Positions 2 through 28,525 of a DNA stretch of 32,000 nucleotides are shown here, piece after piece; position 1 is the first letter of the stretch, and every line of letters starts with the position of its first letter. Under the pieces are notes generated by a model, which was given only the letters and a program-made list of their open reading frames with translations, had not been told where the DNA came from and did no database searches. A program made the translations under genes and the position numbers. Origin of the DNA: Candidatus Omnitrophota bacterium (lineage in GTDB: Bacteria > Omnitrophota > Gorgyraeia > 2-01-FULL-45-10); assembly GCA_023818895.1 (NCBI GenBank), contig JAMWCX010000001.1, positions 329,789 through 361,788 on the forward strand, in the 5' to 3' direction.

Positions 2-3000
2 ACCGGGTATCGACGTGCCCCGCCATGCAGCCATGGCAAATCCCAGATCATCCAGGATCATCGTATCCGGGTCTGACCAGGCCGGATCGCGCGGATTTTG
101 TCTCATGGCGTCATCAACGACTATAACTCTTTTTATCAATCGGCCTTTATCCGCCAGAAGAACCTGTTTCGCCTGCGGATTTTCTTTTCGTAACTTTTTA
201 AGGAGAAAACTCCTGTAGCTCAAGAGCCGCTTATAGAATCCTGTCTCAGGCTCCGGCATATTACGGTTTGCGTATAACTGATACATATCTTCAATGTACT
301 GGCGCACAAAATGTTCCGGGTCGATACGGTCGGCCGACTGGTATCTGTTATGCGCCTTTACCCGATGGAAGTCCGACAGGGCGTCATAGGTAAGCACCCT
401 TTCATAATTATCGGCAAGAAAAGCCGCCAACCTCCCATTATCACTTATTATGCGTTCTATCGTATTCAGGTATTCTACTACTATACTGTCAACTATGGTC
501 GGCTCATAAAATTCATGATTCCGCTCGGCATAATAACCGTGTTTATTCTTTAAGACCTTTATAACTGGAACATCATCGCGAAGCTTTTCTAAAAGCTCTA
601 TTCGATCGATATCGTACCCTTCAAAAGTACGCGAACCTGCCTCCCAATCAGCTGAGGCATACGTAGTATCTTCTTCGTCCTTTTCCTCGCCGAAAGACGC
701 GAACCCATATCGGCTTTCCGCCCTCCCGCTTTCATTCGCCAGCATAACCACAAAATTAATCGCGAAATGAAACGCCGCCATTATCGCAAGGTATACTTGC
801 TGATCCATCATCGCAATCGGCAGAAGAGCCAATGAGGATACGGTAAGCAAAACCGGAGCGCGCATCCATTTTGATTCCTTGTCATAATGCAAAGCGATAA
901 ATACCAACCCCCAAATAAGGTATGACAATGTTATGCTGCCAAATAGGCCGGCCGTGAAATTAGGCAAAAGCCATCTGAAAATTGGTTCTTCAACAAGCGG
1001 CGCAATGAAAAGAGCCCTGATACGTTTACGCAAACCATGACTCATATTCGGTGTCAACAATTTAAGAAGTCTTGTTACCCCTGGACTGAAGGGCTTCGAA
1101 AATACGCTGTTTTTAGTCAGCAGACTCTTTAGCCAATCTAACCCCGCAACTATCTGCCCCCTTTCCAACATGTTTGTCAGAACGGCGGCATTATTTACAA
1201 TATGAAGCACATATCTGGCGGTATTCGACCGGTCGCCGTACACAGCCGAAAAAGAATTTATCCGTTCTCGATTGCTCAAGGCATTTCTTATGTCATTGTT
1301 GACTTTTACCGGTCCCTTTAAATATGCGGCAAGAGCAAATTTCAGTCGCTCAGAACGATCAGTTATCTTAGAGCTATAATTTTCAAATAACTTCAGCAGG
1401 TATGCACTGCCTGCCCCTACATTCTTCTCCGGCACAAAACGCTCGTCGAATTCCGCGACCCACTTCTTGTAATCCGCCGGATCATATCTAGAGCTATCAA
1501 GACCGTATTTCTTAACAAAATTCCTAGCGGCAAGCCGAAGGGCTTTCTCACCGTCACGGCCCGGCTTCCATTCGCGCTTTCCCTCCTTTATATTGTTGTA
1601 CCTGACTACCCTGACGGCGTGTTCCAGCTGGGCCTGCCAGCGCCTGTCTACGCTAAGCCCCATCTCTACAGCAGCAGGCCCGAGAAGCTGCATGAGTCCA
1701 ACTGCGCCGACTGAAGATACAGCGAAGGGATTGCCATTCGATTCGCGCCGTATGTGGGCAAGCACAAGAGCTATATCCGATATTTCAGGAGCGAAAGTCT
1801 TTTCATATCTTTCTTTTTGGGGTTCGACCTGTTCTCTTTCGGTCTTTTCAGGCAGGATTTCTGCCGGCCGATTTTGATCCGTAGCATTCTCTTTCTGCTC
1901 TATACCTACAGGTTCTATTTCATCATCAGGCGGGTTTATTATCCTCAGCGACATCTTCGGCAAAGTAAATGACATCATTACCAACCCTATTAGCGCCATA
2001 ATGTTAAGAATTTTATTGCAAATCTCTCCTTTAATCCCCATGGGAGGGAGCGCGCTTATCGCTTCGTATTTATCCATATCCCCCCGCTCCACTCCTCTCT
2101 GCACCTGTCTGCGATAATCATCGGAGAATAATAATTTTAATAGGATAACTCCGTCTAAACCTATCGGCAGTATCGCAAATGCGAGGTTCATGTATGCGTA
2201 AATACCCAAGAAAAAACCTACAGGGCTGTCAATATGCAGAAGCAATCTCGCCACAACTTCTGATATTATAAATAAGGCAAAATGCACCGGATAAGGTGCC
2301 GCTATTATCTTTGCGAGTTTTCTTGACACATCAGGAGTGCCCTTCAAAAATCCGAATTGAACACTCACAAGCGTCTGAGGATCATACCCGAGCTCTACGC
2401 CATCGGCACCGTTACTAATGGCCACGATCGCATGGGCTGTCTCATGCACCATAAAGGTAAGCAACAGGACGAGCGCCATCAGTCCCAAAAAAGGCAATAA
2501 GTCCACCTCCAGATCGCTTAAATAAACGAAAAATACCGGCAGGGCCGCGACTATGTTTAAGCGCGCGCGAAAATGTTTTGCGGATTTTCCCGGTGGGCCT
2601 GAGCGGGAAACTTTTTTTGTGACCACGAAGGGAAGTCCCTGCGATGCTTCAAAGGAGTCTCCAAGATATTTTACAACTTTGCTTCTCATTTCGCTGTCTA
2701 ATATCCCTATACCCGGTAATATGCAGCGGCCTCCTGGCTTAAGAACTCGCCTTATCTCTCTAAAGGTCCTTGACAGCTGTGTGTCAGTAAAATATTCGAA
2801 GACTCCCAACTCATAGACAACATCGAAGTAATCATCGGGATAAGGCAAGTGCTCGGTTATGTCCCCTTTTACCAGTTTTACGTCCTTGGCCTCCGTATTC
2901 TCCAAGGCAATATCTATGCCGAATGCTTCCACCTTTTTGCCGTAGACGGCCTTTAACCCTTCGATCGTGTTTCCGCGTTCACCGCAGCCGAGATCAAGGA

Positions 3001-6000
3001 CCCTAACCGTGCCAGAGACGCTGTTGATAGCATCGTTTATGGCACTCTTTATCGAAGAGGGCAGCTCGTCATATGCCCTGTTTGACATTCCTGGCTCCGA
3101 CGAATGAAAGAGCCTTGCAACAAACTCCTTTTCCGCCGCTGACACCACAAAGCGCTGCAGAAGATCCTTCATTTCTTTTGGTGTAATATTATTAGATATT
3201 ATGGAGGTTATAAGCCACCAGGACTTTGTCTTGATCAATTTGTCCCTCAGGCTGTCCGGCACGACAGGACCCTTATCCCCCACGCTCTTCGATCTGAGAT
3301 ATTCAAATATCTTGATATGCTCGTCAAATGGGATCGGGTCTTTATCAGAATCGCGCCATACCTTCAGATAAAAGCCGAGATTCCATATCTCGAGCTCCTC
3401 CACCGTCATTCCTACCTTTCGGAGTATCCTGTCTATCTCCTCAGCATCTGGAACTCCGGTCTTCTCATGGTCATACGCTTCAGGCACATCATACACCAAT
3501 CCAGACTCTTGCGCCCTGCGAAGCGCGCCAGCCTGCTGTAAATCTGATATTTTGTTAGTCGAGGCGACATTTACAACAAAATCGAATGCGAACAATCCGA
3601 AGATGGCATAAAGAACCGCTTTTACCGATGATGATACAGCCGGATAGCTTAACAGCAGATTTGACACCCCTGGCATACCGGAAGCGATGAACAGCAATAT
3701 AGAAAAGGCCGCTATTCCCATTCCGAGCGGCGCTGCCAAAAGAACACGAAGCGGATTTTTGAAGTTTTCGCCTTCAGGTGCGCGATACGCGCCGCCTACG
3801 ATCCTGCCGCCCTCACGGATGATCTCGATCCTGCCCCTGAAGCCGTCCGCCAGCGCGTGTAAGAACTCGTGGGGATAAACCACTAGCATCGACAAGAAGT
3901 TGCCGATAAAGGGAATGCGTGATAAGTGGCGGGCGGTAAAGCTGTAAGCCTTTCCATGCATTGGAGGCTGCATATTATCCAGAAGATATCCGCTGAGCCA
4001 TTTTACGTCATCGATTCTGACAGGGTTTATGTTTTGGATGAATGGATCCCTGCTCAGGCCCAAGGCCGGCGCGTGATTCCCCCCGATTAACACGAGAAAT
4101 TTCTTAGCAGGGTATTTTCGCGTCAGCGCTTCAAGACGTTTCGCCGCAACCTCGTTACGCGCCTTAAGCATCTCCTCCCTGACAAGAACGGCCTTCTGGT
4201 GGAACCTCTTCAGTTCTTCCCTTGAGGCCGATATCCTGATCGCAGCTTTTAAGAGGATCTGCCGTACCTCATCCTCCGGAATACCATAAAGTATTTTCGC
4301 GGTCTGCACAAAAGGATTGAACATTAGCGGAAACGGCGGATCTCGGTCTGTCTTTGCGCCCCTGGCCAATAAGCCCTTAACGACGAGGCTCAGGTGGTCG
4401 TGCAATTGTGGAAAAAGGGATGCGGCCAAGATATCTTCCTTGGAAAGGCCTGTTCTTCTTATCAGTATCTCGAGAACCTCGACATCGCCCTGAAGAGGGA
4501 TTATATCTTCAACCGGTATATTGAGATCCCTGCTCAACTTATCGGCTATCGCCACATCTGCTAGCGAGATCGGCATGCCCGTCTTTCTTCGGTCGGGCAA
4601 AGACTCCGCAACAATTACCCAATCCTGCGGATTCCGAATTATTGACCTGCTTATAGCAAGGATCTCGTCGGCTGCCCTCGGCGAACCGTGCGTGCCCGCA
4701 ACAACCTCCATGGGGGTTCCATACAATGTTATGGAATAACGCTCCGCGCCCCCGCTGGTTATAGTCGACGGCATAGGGCCGAATCTAAGTTCAACCTGGC
4801 TTTTGTGTTCGGCAAGAGATTTGTAAGTTCTTTCAACGCGTATATACGGAACGACAAGGAACGCGGTTATTGCCGCCACCGCAAGAAGCACAGCCGATAT
4901 GATTATAGCCCTGAACGGCGCATGTCTTTCTTTCGCAGCCTGTTTTCCCTGCACAGGAGGCGCGCGCGGCCCTGCCGGCTGAATAACAAAACGCGCTTCA
5001 ATCTCGCCAAGGTACCGCTCGGGGAGGCCCAGTTCTTTTCGTATATCATCAAGAGTCAGACGGTCGCCCTTATTGGCAACAACAACGCGGACCTTCTTGG
5101 CGGCTGCCCGTCTCGCCTCTCTTTTTTCAAGCTTAGGTAGCCCTTCAAGCGCTCTGGCTATGTCCGGAATGGTGGTATCCCTATTAAGCGCCAGACGACC
5201 TGCCGACGACCGTCCCATTCCCTGACCTAGATGAAGCGCCATCGCAAGCCTTACACCGTCCTCCTCGCTTAAACCATACCTTTTAACGAGCGCATCCAGG
5301 TCAATATCTTCCAGAGGAGTTCCCGTGGCAAGCTGCCGACGAGCCTCACGGATTGCGGCGTCAAGACCTGTCGAAGATACCTTAGCATTTGACCTTCCTC
5401 TTGCCTTAACGACCTCGATCGGATCCAGGCCGCCCCTAAAGGATTCGTCGTTAACAAGCGCCTCTACCAGGCCGGCCATCCCTGGAATCTCCAGATCAGC
5501 CGCCTTCACATATTCATCTCTCTTCATGGTATTAAGTTTTTCTCTAAACCACTCTGTCATTCCTCGCTCGCGTATCAGAGGAATGTATTCGGGCATCCTA
5601 AGTTCGTTACGCAGCCTTTCCCATTGCGCTTTGTTTACACGGCGCGCAAGCTCTTTTACACGGTCCTCGTGAGCCTTAAGCTCATCCTCCATCTGCGGTA
5701 TATACTCATCCGACCCTTTTCTCGCATCGTTATGCCTCATCGCTAAATAAATTATCCGCTTCTCGATGACGGATAGTCTCCTCTTTGTATTTAAGAGGTG
5801 GTCGGCTATGGCCAATCTTACATCCTCGTCGCTTGCGTCCGGCCACACTTCTATCCACGAGCCATCCTCCGAAAAAATCACCCTGCATAAGCCGGGAATG
5901 TTCATAGGGGTTTCAATATAGCGGACAATCTTAGAATACTCCGCGTCAACCAGCTGTTGCAACCTCGTCAGGTCCATTAGCGCCGGCTTGTCCGACACCT

Positions 6001-9000
6001 GCTCAGCCGGAATAGATACAGCCTTTTTGCCGGAAATCAAGCGACGGGCCATATTGATTATCTTTGCCCAGAAGATGGATATCAAGATAAGAGGAAAAAC
6101 GTATTTCAGGGCAAACAAACGCAGGCCTTTGGGAGATAAAAAATATGGCTTTAAATCTTCGACGCGCTGCGCCTTTACATGCTCAAGCCTAAAGTCAGCT
6201 AAATTGGAAGAGCATCTTACCGCGCCCTCGTATGAGGCTATATTTTTCGCATTTACCGTCCTCACCTCATAGCCCAGACCTTCCCATATCTTACAGGCTC
6301 GGGCGTCCATTAAGTCGTAACTGTATACAGGCACCAAAGCGACCCGATCCCGCAGGATAACAGCATTGTTATAGGTAATAACCGCCCCTTTGCCAGCCAC
6401 AGTCAGGCCGTACCATGGAAGCGCTGTGACCTTCATTCCTATATCGGTAAGCTCTCTTACCGTCTCGTCCAGTTTCCCAAGAACGCTTGTAAGGCCGCTT
6501 AAATCAAAGCTATAGGCATCAAATCTATCGCAGAAATCTACCAGCGCCTTCTTGAGATCTTTATCGCTAATCTCGGTTTCAACTAAGTATCTTATGTTCG
6601 TCAGCGCAACTTCTATATTGGTAATATGGTTTTTAATGCTTTGTTGCTGTGCCACCGAAATAGAAAATGGCTCTCCTTGTCTTAATATCTCTACCGTTAT
6701 ATCTTTTTCTGTCATAAATTTATCGACATAATCCCGCAACTCATCATATGCAGAAATGTCCAATCTTGCCAAATCAACAGCGGCCTGTTCCAGAAAAGCC
6801 TCCAATCCCATCTTCGGCGAACCTACAAGCGCCACACCTTCCTCCAGAAGCGTGACTTGGGTATCTATATGCGATTTCTCTATGTATGACGGTAAAAGAT
6901 GCAGCTCAGCCTCAAAGAAATCAGTGGCGAAGCGTTTTATGGTCTCCAGAACATCCTCTTTCGTATCAGCTGTTGCCAGCTCCAGGTTTAACCATACGGT
7001 ATGCTCGCCTATGAACAGGTGTTTTTTACCGCCTATCTCAGATACCAACAGGTCGCCTCCGACTAAATCGAATGGCAATTCCACCAGCTTCGCCCCTATG
7101 GCAGCCGCCACTTCCGAAGCAACGGTATAACCGTCGCTTCGGCCATCTTTACCCAACGACTTCATGTGCTTTGAGACGAGCACAAGGCCGGCATCATCCG
7201 GCCCTTTAGCGTAAATAAAAGGATCTCTAATCCATATGGGTACGGCGGTGTATGTCAAATCAGGATACGAAGCGAATATGCTCTTGTGTATAGATATCGC
7301 CTTCACCTTAATGGGCTTCTCCTTCTTGACCTTTTTTATAAGATTCTTGAGATCATCCGAAAAAGACGAATCAAGGACCACGAGGACCTCTGTGTCATCA
7401 GGAAGAGATCTGAATAGCTCCATATAATAATCATCGTAAAGGCTGTCATATCCGATTATGATACCGTTTCCTTCCTGTTTATAGGAAGGCGGCAGGTTTA
7501 TACGCTGATAATTAACCGTATCATTTGGTAATGAAGACTCGCTAATGACGGCATCCGATTTTAATGCCACGTTGGTAATAACAGGCTGTGCTAGCGGCGC
7601 GGCGCTGAGAATGGGTGCTGTTCTGAGCAATGCCCCGATAATAGCCATGCTTATCAAATAGCCGGCGCCTCGCCTACCTCTCCGATTCTTGCTGTCCACG
7701 GGTAACTCTCCATGCCGCTGCGCTTTACTGGTAGACATATCAGATCCAGCCATGCCTGCCATCAAATTAGGGGGCGCGCTTATAGCTGCGGCCGCGAGGC
7801 CTAGACGATTTAAATTACTGGCTATAGCTAGCGCGGATAGGCCGCTCGACTGCGCCAGCTTTATGAATTCGGCGTAAGGATTGCCTGAGAGCAGTTTGAA
7901 ATATGGGCTCTCATATCCGGCGCCGTTTCTGAAATTCGGCAGGATGGATATGTAAGAGATATTGTTTTTCTTGAAGAGCTCGCAGAGGTTCTCGGTGTGA
8001 AAGCCTCCGGTGACCACAACAGCAACTTGAGGCCTGACGGCCTGACGATGCGAGGGCCCTTTACTAAATCTGATATTCTTTATGAAAGCTTCGTCGCGCT
8101 TCATGGAATATTCATAAAACTTAGCCATCTCTTCTCGATTACGGTCAAGACCCTCTATCTCGATACTGAGCCTTGCTTCTATGCCATGTTTCGGCGCTTC
8201 CCGTCTTATGAAGTCTATGTAATTTTTGGCGTTGAATGACTCCTCGTTTGCCTGGTAATACGCGTAGTCCGGGCGAGTCAATGTGGCGTTGAAAAGGTTC
8301 TTCATGAGGGCAAGATTCTTGGAAAGAAGGACAAGATCGCGCTGCGTATCATTTTCGCACAGCGACTCTTTCAGCCGCGACTCGAGATCTTCTATCTCCG
8401 CCATCGCTTTAAGATTGTCGACCGCCTCATAGCGCGATATATAGTTGATATAAGCGTAAAACTGCGAGAAATCCTTCGTCTGTATAGAGAGTGCCGCTGC
8501 CTTGGTCATCAGATATGAGTAAAAATCTTTCTGGGATATCCTATTGGCCCGTAAGGCAACTGTCTTGGCTACCAGCTCCTCTACTTCGCTTCGCGAAAGC
8601 GCATTCTGAAGAACATCGATCAACTGATCGCGCTCAATATTAGCCTTTTTGAAATCAATACCGGCCTCCTGCTCAAGCGACTGCTTCAAAAGACCCAGAT
8701 TTTTAAACGCCGCGATATCGACCGATCTTCTCTCTGCGAGCGTAATGAGATGCGAAATATAGTCTCTAAACGGAAGGCTGCCTGACTTGAATTGCGAATA
8801 GGCAACATCCAGATCGAGAAGCTCCTTAGAATATATCTTGAGTTTTAGGGCAGCGAGAACGCTGCTTAATGCCCTGAGGCCCGCGTTCACGCTCTCTTTT
8901 TCACGTAAAGAATTTTTGTAAACCTTAAGGTTATCGAGATAAAGCCGCGGCTCTTCTATCCCCCACAGCGTGATTCTGCCTGGATTATTAATGGCAAAAT

Positions 9001-9490
9001 ACTCAGCTCCGTTTAAAAGACCCTCTTTTACAAAATTATCCGCGGCCTTATGCCTTATCTCCGCATCTTGAATATTTGTGAACAATGAAATATCATAATC
9101 CGCCTCGCCCCCCTCAAGGTTAACTATGCTGGCGCCGTAAGCGGCGCTTAAATAGTCAATAATCTCAGCGATTTTTATCTGTGCGTTATAGTTACAATGA
9201 GCATCCTGAATGTGAATAATAGTCGGGGGCTGTGAGGCAAGAGCCGGTAGATGAGGCGCTGACCATGAACTTTTTATCGTCCCGAGATCGTGCGGTAGGT
9301 AAAATGATTTTATGTCAAATTCTTCCGACTCGGACAGCGGTGAAATAAAATCAGATTTTTCTGCCCATACAAGATCTGCGGGAAGGCATGTGCAGAGAAA
9401 TGCGATAAGGGTAATAAATGCTATTATCCTTATTGACAGCGTGAACCGGAATATTATATCCCTGCGGATATTTGAGCTCGCGTCTTTCAT
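2..9490 (-). CDS. Giant multidomain membrane protein. N-terminus complete, C-terminus beyond the window edge (at least 3163 codons in window). Absent from the supplied ORF track.
   Basis: ATG at 9488-9490 (minus) is preceded by an in-frame TAA 18 nt upstream. Manual translation of the reverse complement, in the frame whose codons have lowest coordinate = 2 mod 3, met no stop down to position 2. Every recognisable motif listed below lies in that same frame. Any in-frame stop would have produced a complete minus-strand ORF in the track, and none is listed. Confidence 0.9.
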   Translation of the reverse strand, partial: MKDASSNIRRDIIFRFTLSIRIIAFITLIAFLCTCLPADLVWAEKSDFISPLSESEEFDIKSFYLPHDLGTIKSSWSAPHLPALASQPPTIIHIQDAHCNYNAQIKIAEIIDYLSAAYGASIVNLEGGEADYDISLFTNIQDAEIRHKAADNFVKEGLLNGAEYFAINNPGRITLWGIEEPRLYLDNLKVYKNSLREKESVNAGLRALSSVLAALKLKIYSKELLDLDVAYSQFKSGSLPFRDYISHLITLAERRSVDIAAFKNLGLLKQSLEQEAGIDFKKANIERDQLIDVLQNALSRSEVEELVAKTVALRANRISQKDFYSYLMTKAAALSIQTKDFSQFYAYINYISRYEAVDNLKAMAEIEDLESRLKESLCENDTQRDLVLLSKNLALMKNLFNATLTRPDYAYYQANEESFNAKNYIDFIRREAPKHGIEARLSIEIEGLDRNREEMAKFYEYSMKRDEAFIKNIRFSKGPSHRQAVRPQVAVVVTGGFHTENLCELFKKNNISYISILPNFRNGAGYESPYFKLLSGNPYAEFIKLAQSSGLSALAIASNLNRLGLAAAAISAPPNLMAGMAGSDMSTSKAQRHGELPVDSKNRRGRRGAGYLISMAIIGALLRTAPILSAAPLAQPVITNVALKSDAVISESSLPNDTVNYQRINLPPSYKQEGNGIIIGYDSLYDDYYMELFRSLPDDTEVLVVLDSSFSDDLKNLIKKVKKEKPIKVKAISIHKSIFASYPDLTYTAVPIWIRDPFIYAKGPDDAGLVLVSKHMKSLGKDGRSDGYTVASEVAAAIGAKLVELPFDLVGGDLLVSEIGGKKHLFIGEHTVWLNLELATADTKEDVLETIKRFATDFFEAELHLLPSYIEKSHIDTQVTLLEEGVALVGSPKMGLEAFLEQAAVDLARLDISAYDELRDYVDKFMTEKDITVEILRQGEPFSISVAQQQSIKNHITNIEVALTNIRYLVETEISDKDLKKALVDFCDRFDAYSFDLSGLTSVLGKLDETVRELTDIGMKVTALPWYGLTVAGKGAVITYNNAVILRDRVALVPVYSYDLMDARACKIWEGLGYEVRTVNAKNIASYEGAVRCSSNLADFRLEHVKAQRVEDLKPYFLSPKGLRLFALKYVFPLILISIFWAKIINMARRLISGKKAVSIPAEQVSDKPALMDLTRLQQLVDAEYSKIVRYIETPMNIPGLCRVIFSEDGSWIEVWPDASDEDVRLAIADHLLNTKRRLSVIEKRIIYLAMRHNDARKGSDEYIPQMEDELKAHEDRVKELARRVNKAQWERLRNELRMPEYIPLIRERGMTEWFREKLNTMKRDEYVKAADLEIPGMAGLVEALVNDESFRGGLDPIEVVKARGRSNAKVSSTGLDAAIREARRQLATGTPLEDIDLDALVKRYGLSEEDGVRLAMALHLGQGMGRSSAGRLALNRDTTIPDIARALEGLPKLEKREARRAAAKKVRVVVANKGDRLTLDDIRKELGLPERYLGEIEARFVIQPAGPRAPPVQGKQAAKERHAPFRAIIISAVLLAVAAITAFLVVPYIRVERTYKSLAEHKSQVELRFGPMPSTITSGGAERYSITLYGTPMEVVAGTHGSPRAADEILAISRSIIRNPQDWVIVAESLPDRRKTGMPISLADVAIADKLSRDLNIPVEDIIPLQGDVEVLEILIRRTGLSKEDILAASLFPQLHDHLSLVVKGLLARGAKTDRDPPFPLMFNPFVQTAKILYGIPEDEVRQILLKAAIRISASREELKRFHQKAVLVREEMLKARNEVAAKRLEALTRKYPAKKFLVLIGGNHAPALGLSRDPFIQNINPVRIDDVKWLSGYLLDNMQPPMHGKAYSFTARHLSRIPFIGNFLSMLVVYPHEFLHALADGFRGRIEIIREGGRIVGGAYRAPEGENFKNPLRVLLAAPLGMGIAAFSILLFIASGMPGVSNLLLSYPAVSSSVKAVLYAIFGLFAFDFVVNVASTNKISDLQQAGALRRAQESGLVYDVPEAYDHEKTGVPDAEEIDRILRKVGMTVEELEIWNLGFYLKVWRDSDKDPIPFDEHIKIFEYLRSKSVGDKGPVVPDSLRDKLIKTKSWWLITSIISNNITPKEMKDLLQRFVVSAAEKEFVARLFHSSEPGMSNRAYDELPSSIKSAINDAINSVSGTVRVLDLGCGERGNTIEGLKAVYGKKVEAFGIDIALENTEAKDVKLVKGDITEHLPYPDDYFDVVYELGVFEYFTDTQLSRTFREIRRVLKPGGRCILPGIGILDSEMRSKVVKYLGDSFEASQGLPFVVTKKVSRSGPPGKSAKHFRARLNIVAALPVFFVYLSDLEVDLLPFLGLMALVLLLTFMVHETAHAIVAISNGADGVELGYDPQTLVSVQFGFLKGTPDVSRKLAKIIAAPYPVHFALFIISEVVARLLLHIDSPVGFFLGIYAYMNLAFAILPIGLDGVILLKLLFSDDYRRQVQRGVERGDMDKYEAISALPPMGIKGEICNKILNIMALIGLVMMSFTLPKMSLRIINPPDDEIEPVGIEQKENATDQNRPAEILPEKTEREQVEPQKERYEKTFAPEISDIALVLAHIRRESNGNPFAVSSVGAVGLMQLLGPAAVEMGLSVDRRWQAQLEHAVRVVRYNNIKEGKREWKPGRDGEKALRLAARNFVKKYGLDSSRYDPADYKKWVAEFDERFVPEKNVGAGSAYLLKLFENYSSKITDRSERLKFALAAYLKGPVKVNNDIRNALSNRERINSFSAVYGDRSNTARYVLHIVNNAAVLTNMLERGQIVAGLDWLKSLLTKNSVFSKPFSPGVTRLLKLLTPNMSHGLRKRIRALFIAPLVEEPIFRWLLPNFTAGLFGSITLSYLIWGLVFIALHYDKESKWMRAPVLLTVSSLALLPIAMMDQQVYLAIMAAFHFAINFVVMLANESGRAESRYGFASFGEEKDEEDTTYASADWEAGSRTFEGYDIDRIELLEKLRDDVPVIKVLKNKHGYYAERNHEFYEPTIVDSIVVEYLNTIERIISDNGRLAAFLADNYERVLTYDALSDFHRVKAHNRYQSADRIDPEHFVRQYIEDMYQLYANRNMPEPETGFYKRLLSYRSFLLKKLRKENPQAKQVLLADKGRLIKRVIVVDDAMRQNPRDPAWSDPDTMILDDLGFAMAAWRGTSIPG
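740..1010 (-). other. Giant protein aa ~2828-2915: CPBP/Abi (CAAX protease-like) intramembrane glutamic endopeptidase domain
   Basis: Motif 1 APLVEEPIFRWLL (EEPIFR 974-991), motif 2 FIALH (FxxxH), and motif 3 AAFHFAINF (HFAIN 755-769). All are embedded in hydrophobic segments. Confidence 0.75.
1185..1800 (-). other. Giant protein aa ~2565-2770: SLT (family 1) lytic transglycosylase domain
   Basis: IALVLAHIRRESNGNPFAVSSVGAVGLMQLL, with the catalytic-type Glu codon at 1742-1744 and GLMQ ending at 1688. Downstream is KFALAAYLKGPVKV (1301-1330), which matches the AYNxGxxxV motif. Confidence 0.85.
2090..2530 (-). other. Giant protein aa ~2320-2465: M50 (site-2 protease)-like intramembrane metalloprotease module
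   Basis: HExxH inside a hydrophobic helix: LMALVLLLTFMVHETAHAIVA (HETAH 2432-2446). A second family motif follows downstream: YMNLAFAILPIGLDGVILL (LPIGLDG 2150-2170). Compare NxxPxxxLDG in SpoIVFB/RseP-type enzymes. Confidence 0.7.
2690..3080 (-). other. Giant protein aa ~2140-2265: class I SAM-dependent methyltransferase domain (Methyltransf_11-like)
   Basis: Motif I VRVLDLGCGERG (2972-3001), post-I AFGIDIA, motif II YFDVVYELGVFEYF, and motif III REIRRVLKPGGRCIL (LKPGG 2729-2743). Confidence 0.85.
3560..3900 (-). other. Giant protein aa ~1865-1975: HExxH membrane module (M50B-like putative metalloprotease)
   Basis: VVYPHEFLHALADGFRGRIEIIREGG, with HEFLH at 3857-3871. It is followed by hydrophobic spans LRVLLAAPLGMGIAAFSILLFIASG and VKAVLYAIFGLFAFDFVVNV. 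The HExxHAL-x4-G-x-I pattern resembles Peptidase_M50B. Confidence 0.5.
4050..4770 (-). other. Giant protein aa ~1575-1810: Tiki/TraB/GumN-like module 2
   Basis: EVVAGTHGSPRAADEI (4679-4705), DWVIVAESLPD, and KKFLVLIGGNHAPALG (4058-4090). Compare TraB LVGTAHFS ... VMVELC ... VVGMGHVPGI. Confidence 0.5.
6200..7471 (-). other. Giant protein aa ~674-1096: guanidino-group-modifying (pentein) domain, agmatine deiminase / Porphyromonas-type peptidyl-arginine deiminase-like
   Basis: Colinear series matching the agmatine deiminase / PAD_porph motif order: PIWIRDPF (W-I-R-D 7223-7234), DLVGGDLLVSEIGGKKHLFIGE (V-G-G-D 7052-7063), SHIDTQVTLLEEG (H-I-D 6863-6871), ITYNNAVILRDRVALVPVY, and ASYEGAVRCSSN (Cys codon 6212-6214, at the position of the catalytic Cys in GGGxHCxTQ / GxRCMS). 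A helical insertion of about 130 aa follows the HID motif. Confidence 0.6.
7976..9238 (-). other. Giant protein aa ~85-505: Tiki/TraB/GumN/ChaN-superfamily-like module 1 with a long helical insertion
   Basis: TIIHIQDAHCNYNAQ (9191-9220), IVNLEGGE, and VAVVVTGGFHTENL (7985-8017). These resemble the paired GxxH and acidic-strand motifs of TraB/GumN proteins (hhGTxH ... VELD ... VGxGHhxG). Motif-level only. Confidence 0.4.
9362..9490 (-). other. Giant protein aa 1-43: N-terminal signal peptide or signal anchor
   Basis: Basic N-region (MKDASSNIRRD), then hydrophobic IIFRFTLSIRIIAFITLIAFLCTCL, then PADLVWA/EK, which resembles an AxA-type cleavage site. Confidence 0.6.
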
Positions 9491-9862: not shown

Positions 9863-9948
9863 TGGTGGTGAGGGAAGGATTCGAACCTTCGAAGGCTTTC
9901 GCCGCCAGATTTACAGTCTGGTCCATTTGGCCACTCTGGTACCTCACC
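9863..9948 (-). tRNA. tRNA-Tyr (anticodon GTA), type II with long variable arm, CCA encoded
   Basis: Reverse complement is GGTGAGGTACCAGAGTGGCCAAATGGACCAGACTGTAAATCTGGCGGCGAAAGCCTTCGAAGGTTCGAATCCTTCCCTCACCACCA. Acceptor stem GGTGAGG/CCTCACC, anticodon loop CTGTAAA, T-loop GGTTCGAATCC. Very close to E. coli tRNA-Tyr. Confidence 0.95.
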
Positions 9949-10112: not shown

Positions 10113-10172
10113 AAATCGGCTTCGATTCCCTTGCTTGGGAAAATCGCTAACTGGAGCTAGCGGAGGGAATCG
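10113..10172. repeat. Copy 2 of the exact 60-bp direct repeat. Overlaps the genuine 3' end of tRNA-Thr (10152-10172).
   Basis: Identical 60-mer to 9975-10034. Within each copy, cgattccct and agggaatcg are inverted and could pair. Confidence 0.9.
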
Positions 10173-10227
10173 AACCCCCGACCTGAGGTTTACAAAACCC
10201 CTGCTCTGCCTGCTGAGCTACGCTAGC
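10152..10227 (-). tRNA. tRNA-Thr (anticodon TGT), CCA encoded
   Basis: Reverse complement is GCTAGCGTAGCTCAGCAGGCAGAGCAGGGGTTTTGTAAACCTCAGGTCGGGGGTTCGATTCCCTCCGCTAGCTCCA. Clean cloverleaf with anticodon loop TTTGTAA. Confidence 0.95.
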
Positions 10228-13421: not shown

Positions 13422-14282
13422 TTAATTTGCTTTTATTTTTATGACGGCATCCGCCATAAGCGATGCCTGACGAATTTCTTTGACATCGTGGACCCTTAAG
13501 ATACTCGCGCCCTTCAGCACCGCTATCACACACGTAGCTACCGTGCCGATTAGCCTGTTGGCTGGCTCTGGCACGTTAAGCACTTTACCTATAAAAGATT
13601 TTCGCGAGGTCCCTACGCATATCGGACGCCCGAGAATAGCAAGCTCTTCCAGTCTGTTAAGTATCTCAAGGTTATGCTCCAGAGATTTTCCAAAACCTAT
13701 GCCTGGATCAACTATGATAGAGTCTTCGGAAACGCCCGCCTGAATGGCGATCTTGACAGACATAGAAAGATCTCGCGCCACCTCCTTTACCACATCACCG
13801 TATTGCGGATCAGTCTGCATGTTCTTCGGTGTGCCCTTCATGTGCATAAGTATAAGAGCGGCGCCGTATCTCTTGGCAACAGAGGCCATCCTTTCATCAT
13901 ACCGTAAACCGGAGACATCGTTCACTATCCTGGCGCCGGCCTTAAGAGCCTCTTCGGCAACCACTGGCTTGCGCGTATCTACTGAAAGCACCGCATCCGT
14001 CTTCTTCGATAACTCGCGTATTATTGGGATAACGCGCGAGCATTCCTCATCAACGCTTACTTCTTCTGCTCCGGGCCGTGTCGACTCACCACCTATGTCC
14101 ACTATATCAGCGCCGTCTGATATCATATCGAGGGCGTGCCTTACGGCCTTCTCTTTGTCCAAAAATCGGCCGCCGTCTGAAAATGAATCGGGCGTCACAT
14201 TGAGGATGCCCATTATGTAGGTGCGCCTACTCAGTTCAAGCTTTATGCCTCTTACTGTCACATCAGGCCGACTTAGTCGCAT
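13422..14282 (-). CDS. folP: Dihydropteroate synthase
   Basis: IMGILNVTPDSFSDGG, DIGGESTRPG, and DPGIGFGK motifs. Confidence 0.9.
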   Translation of the reverse strand: MRLSRPDVTVRGIKLELSRRTYIMGILNVTPDSFSDGGRFLDKEKAVRHALDMISDGADIVDIGGESTRPGAEEVSVDEECSRVIPIIRELSKKTDAVLSVDTRKPVVAEEALKAGARIVNDVSGLRYDERMASVAKRYGAALILMHMKGTPKNMQTDPQYGDVVKEVARDLSMSVKIAIQAGVSEDSIIVDPGIGFGKSLEHNLEILNRLEELAILGRPICVGTSRKSFIGKVLNVPEPANRLIGTVATCVIAVLKGASILRVHDVKEIRQASLMADAVIKIKAN

Positions 14283-16140
14283 CGGTCTTATTAAAACCCA
14301 GAAGGGCCTTTATCTCCTCCACCTCCATAACCTCTTTTTCAAGTAGCTTATCAGCCAGCAGCTTAAGCTTGTCTTTATGTTTCAGAATTTCGTCTTTCGC
14401 TCTTTGATAGCACTGCTCTATTATGCCACGGACCTCCTGGTCGATCATGAGGGCGGTTTGGTCGCTGTAATTACGCTCTTCTATTATGTCGCGGCCGAGA
14501 AATATCTGCTCTTCGCGATGGCCGAATGTAAGGTGACCTAGCTTTTCGCTCATGCCGTAGCGCGTCACCATCTTACGCGCAAGCTGAGTTGCCACCTCAA
14601 GATCGTTCTGCGCGCCGGTCGAGATCTCATTAAACGTAATCTCCTCGCTGGCCCTACCGCCCAGCAGGCCTGTTATCCTGCCCAACAGCTCTTCTTTTGT
14701 AACTATATATCTATCCTCCAGCGGAAGTTGTATTGTATATCCGAGCGCCATGCCCCGCGGCAGAATCGAAACTTTGTGCAATGGGTCGGCCCCAGGTATA
14801 ACAAGCGCAAGAAGCGCATGGCCTGTCTCATGGTAGGCAACTATCATCTTCTCTTGTTTTGATATTACCCTAGATTTCCTCTCAGGGCCAGCCATCACCC
14901 TTTCTATGGACTCCTGCAACTCCTCCATCGTAACGGACTCTTTATTACGCCTTGCGGCAAGCAGGGCTGCCTCGTTGACGAGGTTGGCAAGATCTGCTCC
15001 CGAAAATCCGGGAGTCTGGCGGGCAAGCGAATTGAGGTCAACGGCCTTATCAAGCTTTATATTACGAGTATGCACCTTTAATATCGCCTCGCGGCCAACA
15101 ATATCCGGCCTGTCGATAACCACCTGTCTGTCAAATCTACCCGGCCGCAATAACGCTGGATCGAGCACATCGGGCCTGTTTGTGGCGGCTATCAATATTA
15201 CCCCTTCCTGAGTATTAAAACCATCCATCTCCACAAGAAGAGCATTAAGAGTCTGCTCGCGCTCATCATGGCCTCCGCCGATGCCAGCAAACCGCTGACG
15301 CCCAACAGCGTCTATTTCATCTATGAATATGATCGCGCCGCGTCCGCTGGCCTTAGCTGACCTCTTGGCCTGTTCGAAAAGGTCTCGCACCCTGGAGGCA
15401 CCTACACCCACAAACATCTCGACAAAGTCAGATCCGGATATAGAAAGGAACGGGACGTTCGCCTCTCCTGCCACGGCCTTCGCAAGAAGCGTCTTGCCAG
15501 TACCGGGTGGACCCATCAGAAGAACGCCCTTAGGAATCTTGCCGCCAAGCCGCTGAAACTTTCTTGGATCTTTAAGAAATTCTATAACCTCCTTAAGCTC
15601 TTCCTTGGCTTCGTCTACACCGGCCACATCCTCAAAGGTTACCTTCAGCCGAGATTCCGAAGCAAGCGTGGCGCGGGATTTGCCGAAAGACCAGATCCTA
15701 CCCCCTCCTGCCGCAGCGCTGCCCCGGTAAACGAAAAACCACAAAAATAATATAAAAAGTATCATCGGACCAAGAGAATAGAAGATGTTCATCCATAGCG
15801 TTTTGGGCGGCTTGACATCAAAGTCCTTCACATTTTCGCGCAGGCTCCTGATAAGGTCCTGATCTCCATCGGGTATATTGACTATGAAGCGACCACCGTC
15901 CGCGAAAACACCCTTTATAACATTCTCTATCTTAACGGCCGATCTTATCTTTTGCGTGCTGGGGTTATCTTTTAGGATCTCGTAAAATTTGGAATAGGTA
16001 ATCTCCTGGACAGGCTTCTCGGTAACGCTCTGGCTCCAGGCGTTTATCAGGTATAAAGCGCCGATGATTATCAGAAGCCATATGACAAAATTACCTCTAT
16101 TTCTCACTGGCTTCAGACTTTTATTTTCCTTCTGCTCCAT
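14263..16140 (-). CDS. ftsH: ATP-dependent zinc metalloprotease FtsH
   Basis: Two TM helices. Walker [14 protein letters not shown], Walker [33 protein letters not shown], and zinc site HETGHAL. Confidence 0.95.
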
Positions 16141-19212: not shown

Positions 19213-19289
19213 TGGTAGCGGGGACTGGATTTGAACCAGTGACACGCCGGGTATGAGCCGACTGCTCTGCCAGACTGAGCTACCCCGCC
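19213..19289 (-). tRNA. tRNA-Met (anticodon CAT), elongator-like. A lysidine-modified tRNA-Ile2 cannot be excluded.
   Basis: Reverse complement is GGCGGGGTAGCTCAGTCTGGCAGAGCAGTCGGCTCATACCCGGCGTGTCACTGGTTCAAATCCAGTCCCCGCTACCA. G1-U72 pair, no initiator GGG/CCC anticodon stem, CCA encoded. Confidence 0.9.
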
Positions 19290-23468: not shown

Positions 23469-24269
23469 CTATATCAGCCTCTTGTCCCTAAACGCCTTTA
23501 TGTAGCCAGCGCAATACTGGTCCTCATTGAGCAAGACAGCCGATGCAGCCATCGCGGAAGAGATATGTCTATCGGTAGGATCAAGGATCGCCGCATCAAG
23601 GCCTGCGGCGGCCGCCATCGATAGGAAAGCGGCGTTTACAGTGCCTCTATGAGGCAGGCCGAATGATACATTCGAAAGGCCGCATATCGTCTTTACATTG
23701 CCGAGCCCCTTTATCGCGGGAATCGCCCTAAGGAACTCTAACGCCTGGCCAGGTTCAGTTGCCACGGGTCTTATTAGCGCGTCAAAATAAAGGTCCTCGG
23801 TATTGAATCCGCCCTTTTTGACATGCTCAACTATCTTCTTAGCTATCTCAACTCTTTCGGCGGCGCTATTCGGCATCCCTTTTTCATCCATGGTAAGAGC
23901 AATGAGTTTGGTCTTGTATTTTACAGCCATTGGGAGGATTTTAGCAATCCTTGGCTCTTCACCTGTTATCGAATTTATGAAAATTTTTCCTTTGCCCTTA
24001 TAGACCGTCAAGGCCTTTTCGATAGCACGATAATTGGGGCTGTCTATGCAGATATTTATTTCCGGGATCTCGCTCTGCAGAACGCTTATAATCCAATCCA
24101 TATCCTGCAATTCGTCCCCCGTTGTGACGGCACAGTTTATATCGATGTAATCGGCTCCGGCCCTCAGCTGAGCGGAAGCCTCCTTAAGTATATGAGCGGC
24201 ATTCCGTGCCTTGATCGCTTCCTCTATGCGCGGCCTGGTTGAGTTTATCCTCTCTCCTATAATAAGCAT
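23469..24269 (-). CDS. Pterin-binding methyltransferase, second AcsE/MeTr-like paralog
   Basis: MLIIGERINSTR, DYIDIN, LSNVSFGLP, and C-terminal YCAGYIKAF. Colinear with AcsE but more divergent than the 26070-26858 copy. Confidence 0.7.
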   Translation of the reverse strand: MLIIGERINSTRPRIEEAIKARNAAHILKEASAQLRAGADYIDINCAVTTGDELQDMDWIISVLQSEIPEINICIDSPNYRAIEKALTVYKGKGKIFINSITGEEPRIAKILPMAVKYKTKLIALTMDEKGMPNSAAERVEIAKKIVEHVKKGGFNTEDLYFDALIRPVATEPGQALEFLRAIPAIKGLGNVKTICGLSNVSFGLPHRGTVNAAFLSMAAAAGLDAAILDPTDRHISSAMAASAVLLNEDQYCAGYIKAFRDKRLI

Positions 24270-25208
24270 CTACTTCTCCCTTAATTGTTTTTCATAACTG
24301 GACTCGATAGTTTTCACAAGGTTGGTCAGCACCTCGTTTATAGGTGTCGGAATCGCGAGCGCCTTCGCCTGCCGTACTATCGCGCCGTTGATGAAATCTA
24401 TCTCCGTCTTCTTTCTATTGAGGACATCCTGTAACATGCTCGATACATTAGACGCTGTCGCCCTGCAAACCGACTCCACCTTCTGTATAGGATCGTCATA
24501 AGATAGCTTTATACGCTTGCGCTTGACGAGCCTGACCGCTTCCTGTACGGCGCAGCGCATCACCTGACGGCACTCATCATACTCCACCAGGGCGCCGTTA
24601 TTAAGCCGTGTAACGGCGGTCAAGGCATTTATACCCGCGTTTATTATAAGCTTGCTCCATATGACAGATTCTATATCTTTCGATATTTTGGTCTCGAAGC
24701 CGGCTTTTGAAAGAACATTCGCCACCTCACGTATGGCGCCCAGCACCCTGCCATCCGCTCTGCCGATTGTAGTGTCGGCCTTACCCGCATGGCGCACGTG
24801 CCCAATACCGAGCAAGGTTGCTCCATGATTTGTCACCCCCGCCATTACTTTTTCGGCTCCGAACTGGTCGTTCATTATTTGCACGTTGCCTATGCCGTTC
24901 TGAAGCGTCAATACGCTCGTAGAGGTCCCAACTAGTTCCTTAATATCCCTGCAAGCCTCTTCTGTTGAGTAGCTCTTTACGCACAGAATAACAAGATCGC
25001 AAACGCCAATATCCTTGGCGCTAGAGGCGGTGTTTACCCTGGCCGTAAATTGACCGCTCACCCCTTCTACCTTTATGCCGTTTTCGGAAATCTTTTTGGC
25101 CCTCTCCGGCATATTGTCGAAAAGCCAGACATCCTCACGCGTCCTGTTCTTTATGGATGCAGCGAGCAGACATCCCAGCGCTCCAGGCCCTACAACGACT
25201 ATCTTCAT
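24270..25208 (-). CDS. panE: 2-dehydropantoate 2-reductase
   Basis: MKIVVVGPGALGC Rossmann N-terminus and ApbA/PanE-type C-terminal domain (WSKLIINAGINALTA). Confidence 0.8.
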   Translation of the reverse strand: MKIVVVGPGALGCLLAASIKNRTREDVWLFDNMPERAKKISENGIKVEGVSGQFTARVNTASSAKDIGVCDLVILCVKSYSTEEACRDIKELVGTSTSVLTLQNGIGNVQIMNDQFGAEKVMAGVTNHGATLLGIGHVRHAGKADTTIGRADGRVLGAIREVANVLSKAGFETKISKDIESVIWSKLIINAGINALTAVTRLNNGALVEYDECRQVMRCAVQEAVRLVKRKRIKLSYDDPIQKVESVCRATASNVSSMLQDVLNRKKTEIDFINGAIVRQAKALAIPTPINEVLTNLVKTIESSYEKQLREK

Positions 25209-25216
25209 GATATCTC

Positions 25217-26059
25217 CTAATCCTTCATGAGCTTCGAAAACTCTTCTTCATTTATCGCGAAGGTATGCTCCGCAGCTGGAAAAGATCCTGTCTCCACTTC
25301 AGACTTGTACTTCTTGAAGGCCTCCAAGATCAACGGCGCAAGCTTGACATACTGCTTTACAAACTTAGGGACAAACCTGTCAAAAAGGCCCACCATGTCA
25401 TTGGTAACGAGAACCTGTCCGTCGCAGTAAGGGCCTGCGCCGCAGCTTATAGTCGGAATCGAAATCCTCTCCGTGATAAGCTTTGCGACCTTGTCCGGCA
25501 CGCATTCCAGCACTATCGCGAAACACCCCGCCTTCTCAAGAAGACGCGCGTCATCGAGAATCTTGCGCGCCGCTTCTGCCGACTTTCCCTGTATCTTATA
25601 GCCGCCAAGCTTCGATACCGTTTGGGGGGTAAGCCCCAGATGGCCAAGAACCGGAATACCGGCATTGACTATAGCCTTTGTAACGCCAACGACTTCGCTT
25701 CCGCCCTCCAGCTTAACCGCATCACAGCCGGCTTCTTTCATGAAACGGCTGGCGTTGCGTATAGCATCTTCGTTAGAGACTTGGTACGACATGAACGGCA
25801 TATCGCCTATGAGGAGGGCATACTTTGTCCCGCGCCGGACAGCCTTTGCGTGATGTATCATCTCGTCCATAGTGACAGGCACGGTCGACTCGTAGCCCAG
25901 AACAACCATACCGAGAGAATCGCCCACAAGGATCGAGTCTATTTCTGCGTTATCAACAAGCTTCGCCATCGGATAATCATAGGCGGTAAGCATCGTTATC
26001 TTCTTGCCGTCTCGTTTTTTGGCCTGCAAATCCGTTATCGTAATTTTCTTGCGCTCCAT
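25217..26059 (-). CDS. panB: 3-methyl-2-oxobutanoate hydroxymethyltransferase
   Basis: LTAYDYPMAKL, LVGDSLGMVVLGY, and GHLGLTPQ motifs. I prefer ATG 26059, which has GAGGAG 6-11 nt upstream. The track's GTG 26104 would overlap acsE by 35 nt. Confidence 0.9.
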   Translation of the reverse strand: MERKKITITDLQAKKRDGKKITMLTAYDYPMAKLVDNAEIDSILVGDSLGMVVLGYESTVPVTMDEMIHHAKAVRRGTKYALLIGDMPFMSYQVSNEDAIRNASRFMKEAGCDAVKLEGGSEVVGVTKAIVNAGIPVLGHLGLTPQTVSKLGGYKIQGKSAEAARKILDDARLLEKAGCFAIVLECVPDKVAKLITERISIPTISCGAGPYCDGQVLVTNDMVGLFDRFVPKFVKQYVKLAPLILEAFKKYKSEVETGSFPAAEHTFAINEEEFSKLMKD

Positions 26060-26069
26060 CTTTTCTCCT

Positions 26070-26858
26070 CTATTTCTTTCTATAAGCGTCCAGGAATGAA
26101 TCACAGTATATATTCTTGTTTAGTATCAACTCGGCTGTTATCATCGCGTCCATGAGCTCCTTGTCAAGAGGGTCGAGAATCGCGGATGTGAGACCGTTCG
26201 CGATAGCCATAGTAAGGAATGTTCGGTTGACAAGGCTGCGGTACTTTGTACCCTGCGAAACGTTGGAAAGCCCTATCGTAGTATTGGGCGCCGGATCGCA
26301 TAGCATCCTGAATTCCCGCAACGATTCGATAACCTCATGCCCCTGAGTCTGCGCGACATTCACAGGAAGAACTATAGGATCAAGAAAAAGGTCCTCAGTA
26401 TTGATGCCGTACTCCATCGCCTTAGCCACTATGGCCGCGGCGAGCTCCAGCCTCTTATCCTTCGAATTCGGGACGCCGGACCTGTCCATCGCAAGCCCTA
26501 TGACCTGCGCGTTGTATTCTTTTGCCAGCCCAAATATCCTGGACATCTTCTCCTCATCAGCGCTGGTCGAATTTATTATAGCCCTCTTGGAGACAAGCTT
26601 CAGCCCTTCTTCGATAACCTCTGGCTTGGTCGAATCAAGGGCAAGCGGCACGCTTACAGTTTTCTGTATCGCCTCAACAAGCCACTTCATGTCATCCACT
26701 GGATTCTTAGAGTAGGGGCCGGTATTCACATCTAGCACTTGGGCCCCTGCCTTTACCTGATCCTCAGCAAGGTGCTGAATCACATCTACCTCCCTATTAT
26801 CTATGGCCCTTGCCACATCTTTGAACATCCCGTTGATCAGCTCGCCTATTACTATCAC
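26070..26858 (-). CDS. acsE: Methyltetrahydrofolate:corrinoid/iron-sulfur protein methyltransferase
   Basis: MIVIGELINGMF, LDVNTGP, INSTSA, DPAPNTTIGLSNVSQG, and NKNIYCDSF. Closely colinear with Moorella-type AcsE as I recall it. GTG start in a GTGA overlap with acsD. Confidence 0.85.
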   Translation of the reverse strand: MIVIGELINGMFKDVARAIDNREVDVIQHLAEDQVKAGAQVLDVNTGPYSKNPVDDMKWLVEAIQKTVSVPLALDSTKPEVIEEGLKLVSKRAIINSTSADEEKMSRIFGLAKEYNAQVIGLAMDRSGVPNSKDKRLELAAAIVAKAMEYGINTEDLFLDPIVLPVNVAQTQGHEVIESLREFRMLCDPAPNTTIGLSNVSQGTKYRSLVNRTFLTMAIANGLTSAILDPLDKELMDAMITAELILNKNIYCDSFLDAYRKK

Positions 26859-27787
26859 GTCTTAGCCCCTTTCATTATAATACCTATATACCTTTCAACC
26901 GCCTTTGCCGCGTCGGGATGGCGCATGACCAGAAGGTCTGCTCCGGCCTGAACAAGCGAAACGGCTGTCGCGATCTCCCAGTTTATGCCCTGGGTCTTGA
27001 CCGACTCTTTGGCCTCCTTGGTCTTCCATACTTCCTGACCCACAAAAAGGACAAAAGGCATCGCGAGCATCCTGTCGCCTATAAACGCGGCAAGCCTTCC
27101 GCGCTCCATTATCGAATAGACATATTCCATGCCATAGCCTAAGGAGGTGGTGGTCGGATGCATAATGATCCTTTTCGGATCGAACCCCATATCGCTTATA
27201 AGTATGTTCACCTGTTTCGCTATGTTGATATCTATCGGCGACTCGGCGATCAGTGAATGGCCATCCGCCAGAGCGGTTGCTGTTAGCGTCTTATAGTTTG
27301 ACTGCGTAGCAGTACCAAGAAGACAATTATGCCCTTTAAGAGCCTGACTCACCTTAGGCATGGAGTCATTATCTATCTCGTCATCGCCACACCCTAAAAC
27401 GATAAGAGGTACTTTTGTCACCGCCAATATAGCTTTTACAATCTCTGCCGCTTCGTCTGCCGGCCTGCCCCCGTAATCAGGATGCATTCCCTGCAATCGT
27501 ACGCATAGAATCTTGGCGCCGAATCTACCAACGCATGCCTTAGCCCATGCCACAGGGTCCTTGATCGCTTCCCCGTATGCTTGCCTGACACTCTCTGCCC
27601 AGTCATCAGGCTGGTAATCCGCTATCTCCAGAGCAACTACAGGAGGATTGGGGCAATCTCCTTCTTCAAAAAGTAGCGGCAGGCAACTCTGACCCCCTAT
27701 TCTAACAGCGGCGCCAACCCCTCCCCCGCCGATCTCAACCATATTTATCGGAGCGCTGCACTTTTCCTTAATAAGTTCTATTGACAT
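26855..27787 (-). CDS. acsD: Corrinoid iron-sulfur protein small subunit (AcsD / CdhD-like)
   Basis: 310 aa. Sits between cooC and acsE, as in the Moorella acs operon order acsC-orf7-acsF-acsD-acsE. GGAGAA Shine-Dalgarno before the ATG. Called mainly on size and synteny. Confidence 0.7.
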   Translation of the reverse strand: MSIELIKEKCSAPINMVEIGGGGVGAAVRIGGQSCLPLLFEEGDCPNPPVVALEIADYQPDDWAESVRQAYGEAIKDPVAWAKACVGRFGAKILCVRLQGMHPDYGGRPADEAAEIVKAILAVTKVPLIVLGCGDDEIDNDSMPKVSQALKGHNCLLGTATQSNYKTLTATALADGHSLIAESPIDINIAKQVNILISDMGFDPKRIIMHPTTTSLGYGMEYVYSIMERGRLAAFIGDRMLAMPFVLFVGQEVWKTKEAKESVKTQGINWEIATAVSLVQAGADLLVMRHPDAAKAVERYIGIIMKGAKT

Positions 27788-27788
27788 A

Positions 27789-28523: not shown

Positions 28524-28525
28524 CG

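Follow-up and report, generated by a model that had tools for sequence, protein, structure and literature searches.

Our analysis shows that a giant open reading frame (ORF) in a stretch of Candidatus Omnitrophota DNA contains a divergent pentein domain with a conserved set of catalytic positions. The stretch, called the window throughout, comprises 32,000 nucleotides of contig JAMWCX010000001.1 (positions 329,789 to 361,788). The ORF (2..9490, minus strand) starts at an ATG at 9490 and encodes a multi-domain protein with multiple transmembrane (TM) helices. Amino acids (aa) 660-1115 of this protein (6146..7513, minus strand) were delimited as a PAD_porph-like pentein domain from an AlphaFold2 model, Foldseek and a profile match to 1xkn. 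Judged from sequence profiles and the model, the domain is a real, very divergent relative of agmatine and peptidyl-arginine deiminases, and it probably modifies guanidino (arginine-like) groups. The analysis itself establishes the homology, the fold prediction and the conserved state of the catalytic positions. Based on these observations, we consider it likely that the domain is a competent guanidino-group hydrolase that uses the canonical Cys-thiouronium mechanism, is tethered to the membrane and probably faces outward.

Homology to the PAD_porph family

Relatives of the domain were recovered by an exhaustive phmmer search of 1.84 billion cluster representatives, which returned 148 proteins at E<=1e-3. 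The top match, P0001 (6938 aa), covers the whole domain together with an insertion described below (E=1.9e-58, 35% identity), and the second, P0002, is a 547-aa fragment from a 'Deltaproteobacteria' metagenome-assembled genome. Two further giants, P0026 (2959 aa) and P0041 (3569 aa), were among the matches, while most of the remaining matches were proteins of 350-450 aa that aligned in two blocks flanking an extra segment of the query. The window clade is only about 20-35% identical to all other relatives. One candidate homologue, P0003 (3662 aa, E=2.0e-16), was rejected. In this highly repetitive protein, the match consists of 14 very weak hits to domain residues 137-185 with a strict 189-residue period. 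This pattern probably reflects repeats or composition and not homology to penteins, and the alignments do not include P0003.

Other searches returned little. The word-index protein search found nothing with the domain itself and three weak standalone matches with a five-sequence profile (alignment A2). Scans of GTDB genome contigs and JGI metagenome contigs yielded no relatives of the domain, and a single-sequence search of the PDB gave noise only (BirA, E=1.2).

An alignment of 92 relatives of the domain (A1), which like A2 was too divergent to yield DNA patterns, was used as a profile against the PDB. The best match was 1xkn (E=8.6e-16), in two stretches that correspond to WxRD...EGG...HxD and YxN...C. 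It was accompanied by 1zbr (4.5e-8), the agmatine deiminases of C. jejuni (6b10, 1.8e-6) and H. pylori (3hvm), and PPAD (6i0x/4yt9, 3e-6 to 1e-5); DDAH and ADI were matched more weakly. Profile-level homology to solved PAD_porph members, as seen with 1xkn, therefore holds over both halves of the domain. Pfam searches of the A1 members gave a similar picture. PF04371 (PAD_porph) matched 83 of the 92, mostly weakly and often over the full profile length, while PF02274 matched four (E>=0.0015). Individual PF04371 scores reached 29.2 bits for P0026, which passes the gathering threshold, and 44.1 bits for P0010.

Predicted fold and helical insertion

A structural model was built with AlphaFold2 using A1 as the input alignment. 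It has a mean predicted local distance difference test (pLDDT) score of 89.1 and a predicted template-modelling (pTM) score of 0.89. The folded core, approximately domain residues 25-480 (giant aa 660-1115), is modelled at pLDDT >70. A Foldseek search with this model gave 36 PDB matches at E<=1e-3, and every one of the matches listed is a pentein-fold protein. The best was the putative PAD 1xkn (E=2.5e-12, probability 1.00). The leading structures (1xkn, 2ewo, 6b10, 2jer, 2cmu and 3hvm), with agmatine deiminases prominent among them, had E-values of 2.5e-12 to 4e-10 and target-normalised TM-scores of 0.61-0.72. Amidinotransferases, DDAH, ArgZ and arginine deiminases followed at lower ranks. 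The pentein fold proposed in an initial annotation of this DNA is thus predicted by the model (pTM 0.89; best Foldseek E=2.5e-12).

The same annotation described a coiled-coil-like insertion of about 130 aa between the HID motif and the C-terminal lobe. The model does contain an all-helical stretch of that size at this point (domain residues 257-381, approximately 125 aa). It is not one long coiled coil, however, since its secondary structure in the model resolves into separate helices. Homologues are also helical here, and the spacing from the catalytic His to the conserved Asn is 167 residues, whereas the standalone proteins have a median of 87 (quartiles 85-93.5). Only about 77-80 aa are therefore truly inserted. 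They lie between blades III and IV (giant aa 916-992; 6515..6745, minus strand), where the model has three helices (domain residues 281-302, 311-337 and 342-357, with pLDDT >90). P0001 and P0002 share it, with spacings of 158 and 174; the corresponding values are 123 in P0026 and 95 in P0041. All other inter-motif spacings of the window domain are canonical. We regard the helical insertion of approximately 80 aa as clade-specific and presume that it serves as an accessory lid or interaction element.

Conservation of the active site

Residues of the domain were mapped onto known enzymes through the profile alignments to PDB sequences and the columns of A1. The equivalent residues of PPAD and AgDI are C351/C357, H236/H218, N297/N306, D238/D220 and D130/D96, and mutating D130, G182, H236, D238, N297 or C351 abolishes PPAD activity (PMC4487231). 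PPAD N297 (AgDI N306) hydrogen-bonds the catalytic Cys; W127, G182 and R152 also matter in PPAD, while the T180A mutant keeps approximately 66% of its activity (PMC4487231).

The motifs reported in the initial annotation lie exactly where it placed them, on the minus strand and in a single open frame, as confirmed by translation. Nothing supports a plus-strand ORF that overlaps the domain (6756-7130). PPAD W127 and D130 (AgDI D96), the latter being the first guanidinium-binding Asp, correspond to W753 and D756, each conserved in 91 of the 92 A1 sequences. They bound the motif W753-I-R-D756 (7223..7234), which aligned to WCRD/WTRD of 1xkn and PPAD. The counterpart of EGG(N/D), read as T180-G-G-N in PPAD, is V810-G811-G812-D813 (7052..7063). 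Its two Gly residues match PPAD G181-G182 and are present in 89/92 and 91/92 sequences. V810 occupies the T180 position, where E or D is found in 83/92 of A1 and V in only two. The general acid/base His (PPAD H236) is H874, conserved in 91/92, and the second guanidinium-binding Asp (PPAD D238) is D876, conserved in 77/92; both belong to H874-I-D876 (6863..6871), aligned to GHVD/HVD of 1xkn and PPAD. PPAD N297 corresponds to N1042 in the motif T1039-Y-N-N1042 (6365..6376), aligned to SYAN of 1xkn and YTN of PPAD. Finally, PPAD C351 corresponds to the predicted nucleophile C1093 (6212..6214) within YEGAVRCSSN, aligned to GAIHC of 1xkn and ALHC of PPAD. Both N1042 and C1093 are invariant (92/92).

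The seven mechanistic PPAD positions (W753, D756, G812, H874, D876, N1042 and C1093) are all kept in the window copy, which retains each residue needed for PPAD activity and departs from the pattern only at the EGG Glu, where it has Val. The colinear motif order of guanidino-modifying enzymes on which the original proposal was built is borne out, as the D, GG, HxD, N and C are matched one for one in the alignments to PAD_porph members. N1042, which was absent from that motif list, is also conserved. The further statement that acid, His and Cys positions are all preserved stands for C1093, H874, D756 and D876 and fails for the EGG Glu, which is V810. In the Cys-His-Glu triad described for ADI and DDAH, this Glu is the third residue. 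Its replacement is not disqualifying, because PPAD itself has T180 at this position and the T180A mutant is still largely active. In PPAD, the Arg pair R152/R154 binds the carboxylate of a C-terminal arginine. The position of R152 is taken here by D782, and R784 aligns with R154, in a loop whose alignment is of low confidence. With no apparent counterpart of R152, the domain gives no evidence for a PPAD-type specificity for C-terminal arginine.

Location of the domain

Two hydrophobic helices flank the domain. The upstream helix (aa 612-633; 7592..7657, minus strand) follows the sequence NRRGRRG and has a Kyte-Doolittle 19-residue mean of 1.76, and the downstream helix (aa 1127-1148; 6047..6112, minus strand) precedes RRLISGKK and has a mean of 1.84. 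Five K/R residues are found before the upstream helix and one after it; the corresponding counts for the downstream helix are three and four. This distribution favours a position of the domain outside the cytoplasm. A simple hydropathy rule assigned a hydrophobic, signal-like N-terminus to 83 of the 99 standalone relatives that start with Met, which suggests that the subfamily is largely exported. Taken together, the sequence features favour an exported location of the domain, which would be extracytoplasmic. Export would set the subfamily apart from agmatine deiminases, which are cytoplasmic, and align it with PPAD.

Proposed mechanism and alternative explanations

Based upon these observations, we propose that giant aa ~660-1115 form a five-bladed pentein domain of a mostly exported subfamily, fused between two membrane helices of a giant multi-enzyme envelope protein with methyltransferase, SLT and Rce1/CPBP-like domains and HExxH segments. 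By analogy with PPAD and AgDI, D756 and D876 would clamp the guanidinium group of the substrate. C1093, positioned by N1042, would attack the central carbon to give a thiouronium intermediate, and H874 would protonate the departing ammonia during this step. The same His would then activate a water molecule, leading to release of a ureido product. Catalytic competence is something we infer, as is hydrolase rather than transferase chemistry; the substrate could be peptidyl-arginine, agmatine or another guanidino compound.

Several observations weigh against this proposal. PF04371 scored the domain alone at 21.0 bits (E=2.2e-4), below the gathering threshold of 25 bits, and matched only the C-terminal ~80 residues of the profile (positions 234-317); a longer domain segment scored 20.5 bits. 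PF02274 gave no match to the window sequence at E<=1, so that the Pfam models by which the initial annotation was to be checked yielded only the sub-threshold PF04371 hit. No deiminase model of NCBIfam was matched by the domain, apart from very weak DDAH and AguA signals. An N-in orientation is suggested for the N-terminal anchor (aa 18-36) as well as for helix 612-633. An additional, weak TM helix at about aa 560-583 would then be needed, and the topology of the domain-bearing segment is ambiguous. The EGG Glu is replaced in the giant-embedded proteins (V in the window copy, L in P0001, Q in P0026 and Q in P0041). In P0001, the closest relative, the His has changed to Asp ('SDID'), the Arg to Gln and a Gly to Ser. 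Because P0001 has lost the His, catalytic constraint is not uniform in the giant-embedded clade, and catalysis may be dispensable there. That the catalytic residues converge on one pocket is likewise something we infer from homology. The suggestion of an active enzyme is supported by the intact catalytic residues and the predicted fold, with the lost Glu and a Pfam score under the cut-off as caveats.

In one alternative, the domain is a pseudoenzyme with a pentein fold. As a structural or ligand-binding module, it would recognize guanidino or arginine-containing ligands, such as those on the surface of prey or a host, but would not turn them over. Each of the four giant-embedded copies that span the motif has lost the Glu, and this loss, the additional changes in P0001 and the high divergence of the clade all speak for such a role. 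We nevertheless think this alternative unlikely, since the window copy keeps the equivalents of D130, G182, H236, D238, N297 and C351, all essential in PPAD, its one deviant position is the tolerant T180, and the Cys and Asn are invariant in all 92 sequences, giant-embedded copies included. Another option is an amidinotransferase, which would pass the amidino group on to an accepting amine, instead of a hydrolase. The Foldseek matches include the amidinotransferases SxtG (6u1r), HsvA (5wpi) and AGAT (1jdw), which have the fold and the Cys-His-Asp chemistry in common with the domain; the two fates of the thiouronium intermediate are not separable by sequence alone. Agmatine deiminases and PAD_porph members are, however, favoured by four to five orders of magnitude in Foldseek (E of 1e-12 to 1e-10 compared with 6e-7 and weaker). 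The sequence profile, too, matched only these strongly, and PF04371 was found in 83/92 relatives compared with 4/92 for PF02274. We therefore consider an amidinotransferase very unlikely. Chance resemblance of the motif order in a non-homologous or non-coding segment could be argued from the sub-threshold single-sequence Pfam match and from word-index and contig scans that found no close relatives, but it is refuted by phmmer E-values down to 1e-58, the profile match to the PDB at 8.6e-16, a confident AlphaFold2 pentein model with a Foldseek probability of 1.00, and the host ORF itself, more than 2000 aa of which are homologous to an annotated protein from Omnitrophota. We give it practically no credence.

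A membrane-tethered guanidino-group hydrolase remains our preferred reading. A more specific version of it would have an active, extracytoplasmic protein-arginine or surface-guanidino deiminase built into a giant envelope machine, alongside a lytic transglycosylase, proteases and a methyltransferase, and modifying a host or prey surface or the cell's own envelope. We regard this version as quite unlikely. If it were true, citrullination would extend beyond Porphyromonas and animals, and a function would be defined for an unnamed exported family of bacterial penteins.

Giant host protein and neighboring genes

The product of the giant ORF is at least 3163 aa long. This is a lower bound, because the left end of the window cuts the ORF, whose frame continues without a stop down to base 2. 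The protein is related to P0041 (MBN2453658.1, 3569 aa, Omnitrophota), which is annotated as 'transglycosylase SLT domain-containing protein'. Giant aa 1-938 align to it at 37% identity, aa 1374-2007 at 43% and aa 2302-2830 at 31%; this last block occupies another place in the order of P0041. Pfam identified an S-adenosylmethionine-dependent methyltransferase (Methyltransf_11) at aa 2165-2258 and SLT at aa 2574-2615, with a second SLT stretch at about 2680-2730. A segment resembling Rce1/CPBP (aa 2824-2914) fell marginally under the Pfam cut-off. Recent horizontal acquisition of the gene was considered and rejected, as its GC content (0.44-0.52) is near that of its surroundings (~0.49 elsewhere in the window).

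Two HExxH motifs were seen within or beside hydrophobic segments: HEFLHAL at giant aa 1873-1879 (window ~3853-3873, minus strand) and HETAHAI at aa 2349-2355 (~2425-2445, minus strand). When the otherwise unannotated segments were searched with Pfam, the second gave a faint Peptidase_M50/M50B signal that was under the cut-off (E=0.013). Both segments may be intramembrane metalloprotease-like modules. Paired His motifs occur in two further regions, at giant aa ~1590-1810 (window 3743-4849, minus strand; 'VVAGTHGSPRAAD ... LIGGNHAPAL') and at aa ~95-500 (~7990-9210, minus strand; 'IIHIQDAHCN ... VVVTGGFHTENL'). Pfam matched neither segment. By their resemblance, both would be candidate domains of the TraB/PrgY/TIKI/ChaN type. 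P0041 carries a DUF7790 domain at aa 3246-3332 (E=3e-16). None was detected in the visible part of the window's giant protein; one may be present in its C-terminus, past the left window end.

Eight neighboring gene products are identical to proteins of a 'Candidatus Omnitrophota bacterium' metagenome-assembled genome (MCM8790411-430). Elsewhere in the window, three tRNA genes were found on the minus strand. Tyr-GTA (9863-9948) and Thr-TGT (10152-10227) sit in the gap of approximately 730 bp directly upstream of the giant gene, and Met-CAT lies at 19213-19289. An intact ORF for a 625-aa FtsH with AAA and Peptidase_M41 domains is located at 14263-16140 (minus strand). The records contain no product identical to it, the corresponding gap of the sister contig JAMWDH010000057.1 (1346-3264) has no called gene, and NCBI protein accessions are consecutive across the ORF (FolP ...415, TilS ...416). 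In the source assemblies, this ORF may have been marked as a pseudogene or passed over in annotation. Finally, a gene cluster of the Wood-Ljungdahl/corrinoid type occupies 23469-30421 (minus strand). It encodes two pterin-binding (MeTr-like) proteins, CdhD-like proteins of the CODH/ACS delta-subunit type, a CooC/ParA-type ATPase and an ASKHA-domain protein, and the pantothenate genes PanE and PanB are interspersed among them.

Significance and comparison with known systems

The fold, the chemistry and the superfamily described here are already known. What is new is the assignment of a divergent, sub-threshold domain to this superfamily, together with its clade-specific insertion and its recurrence in giant multi-TM proteins (four to five cases). 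A large unnamed subfamily of exported penteins was also recognised; it comprises at least 140 clusters at 50% identity, mostly of proteins that appear to bear signal peptides. Standard hidden Markov model thresholds miss the very divergent domains of giant Omnitrophota proteins, which leaves these proteins largely without annotation, and the present domain is a case in point. An intact-looking pentein site would add guanidino-group modification to the roles proposed for these giants at the envelope or against prey. If the substrate were peptidyl-arginine, the very narrow known range of bacterial protein citrullination would be widened.

A deiminase within a giant envelope protein had been thought unusual when the window was first annotated. 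The domain is less isolated than that, as at least three other giants (P0001, P0026 and P0041) carry it. Among the domain-bearing giants, an Omnitrophota origin is shown for the window copy and P0041. The closest parallel for the host protein is found in the 'Archaeovorins' of Omnitrophota, which are multi-TM chains of divergent enzyme domains implicated in cell-wall attack, in a set of proteins of more than 30,000 aa from genes of more than 90 kb (bioRxiv 10.1101/2023.11.21.568195). The text of that paper mentions neither a deiminase nor a pentein domain, and our literature search found no paper that links Omnitrophota giants with deiminases. Archaeovorins and the window giant are both from Omnitrophota and both have TM helices between methyltransferase, peptidase-like and SLT domains. 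In contrast, at least 3163 aa of the window giant can be seen, and its visible part has no SecA-like, C39 or S8 domain.

At the level of the domain, the ADI/DDAH/amidinotransferase family (PF02274, PF19420) belongs to the same superfamily and shares its fold and Cys-His-Asp chemistry. The window sequence has no Pfam match to this family, though, and the Foldseek E-values are much weaker (1e-5 to 1e-3). ADI contains the motifs EGGD and RC, which the 'GGD' and 'R-C' of the window domain resemble. The PAD_porph family (PF04371; 1xkn, 1zbr, 2jer, 6b10, 3hvm and 4yt9) has the same five-bladed pentein fold, and the likeness to PPAD extends to a subfamily that appears exported and to a non-acidic residue before GG in the window copy. 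Nevertheless, solved PAD_porph members are only about 11-14% identical to the window domain in the Foldseek alignments. The window motif is WIRDPF in place of WxRDxGP, and an Arg precedes the Cys (GAVRC) where the family has His (GxxHC). Unlike these soluble enzymes of approximately 350-480 aa, the window domain carries the helical insertion between blades III and IV and is set between TM helices of a protein of more than 3000 aa.

The nearest relatives outside giant proteins are the members of the unnamed subfamily (P0004-P0148, approximately 350-450 aa; E down to 5e-14), with the consensus TxWARDR...EGGN...HxDMYLTP...TYNNVL...GGAVRCLxNV. They have no NCBIfam model, and the gene neighborhoods of two members were uninformative. 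These proteins are standalone and lack the long insertion, and the E/D of EGG is kept in 83/92. The R-C and TYNN motifs and the spacing of all blades are nonetheless common to them and to the domain embedded in the giant protein.

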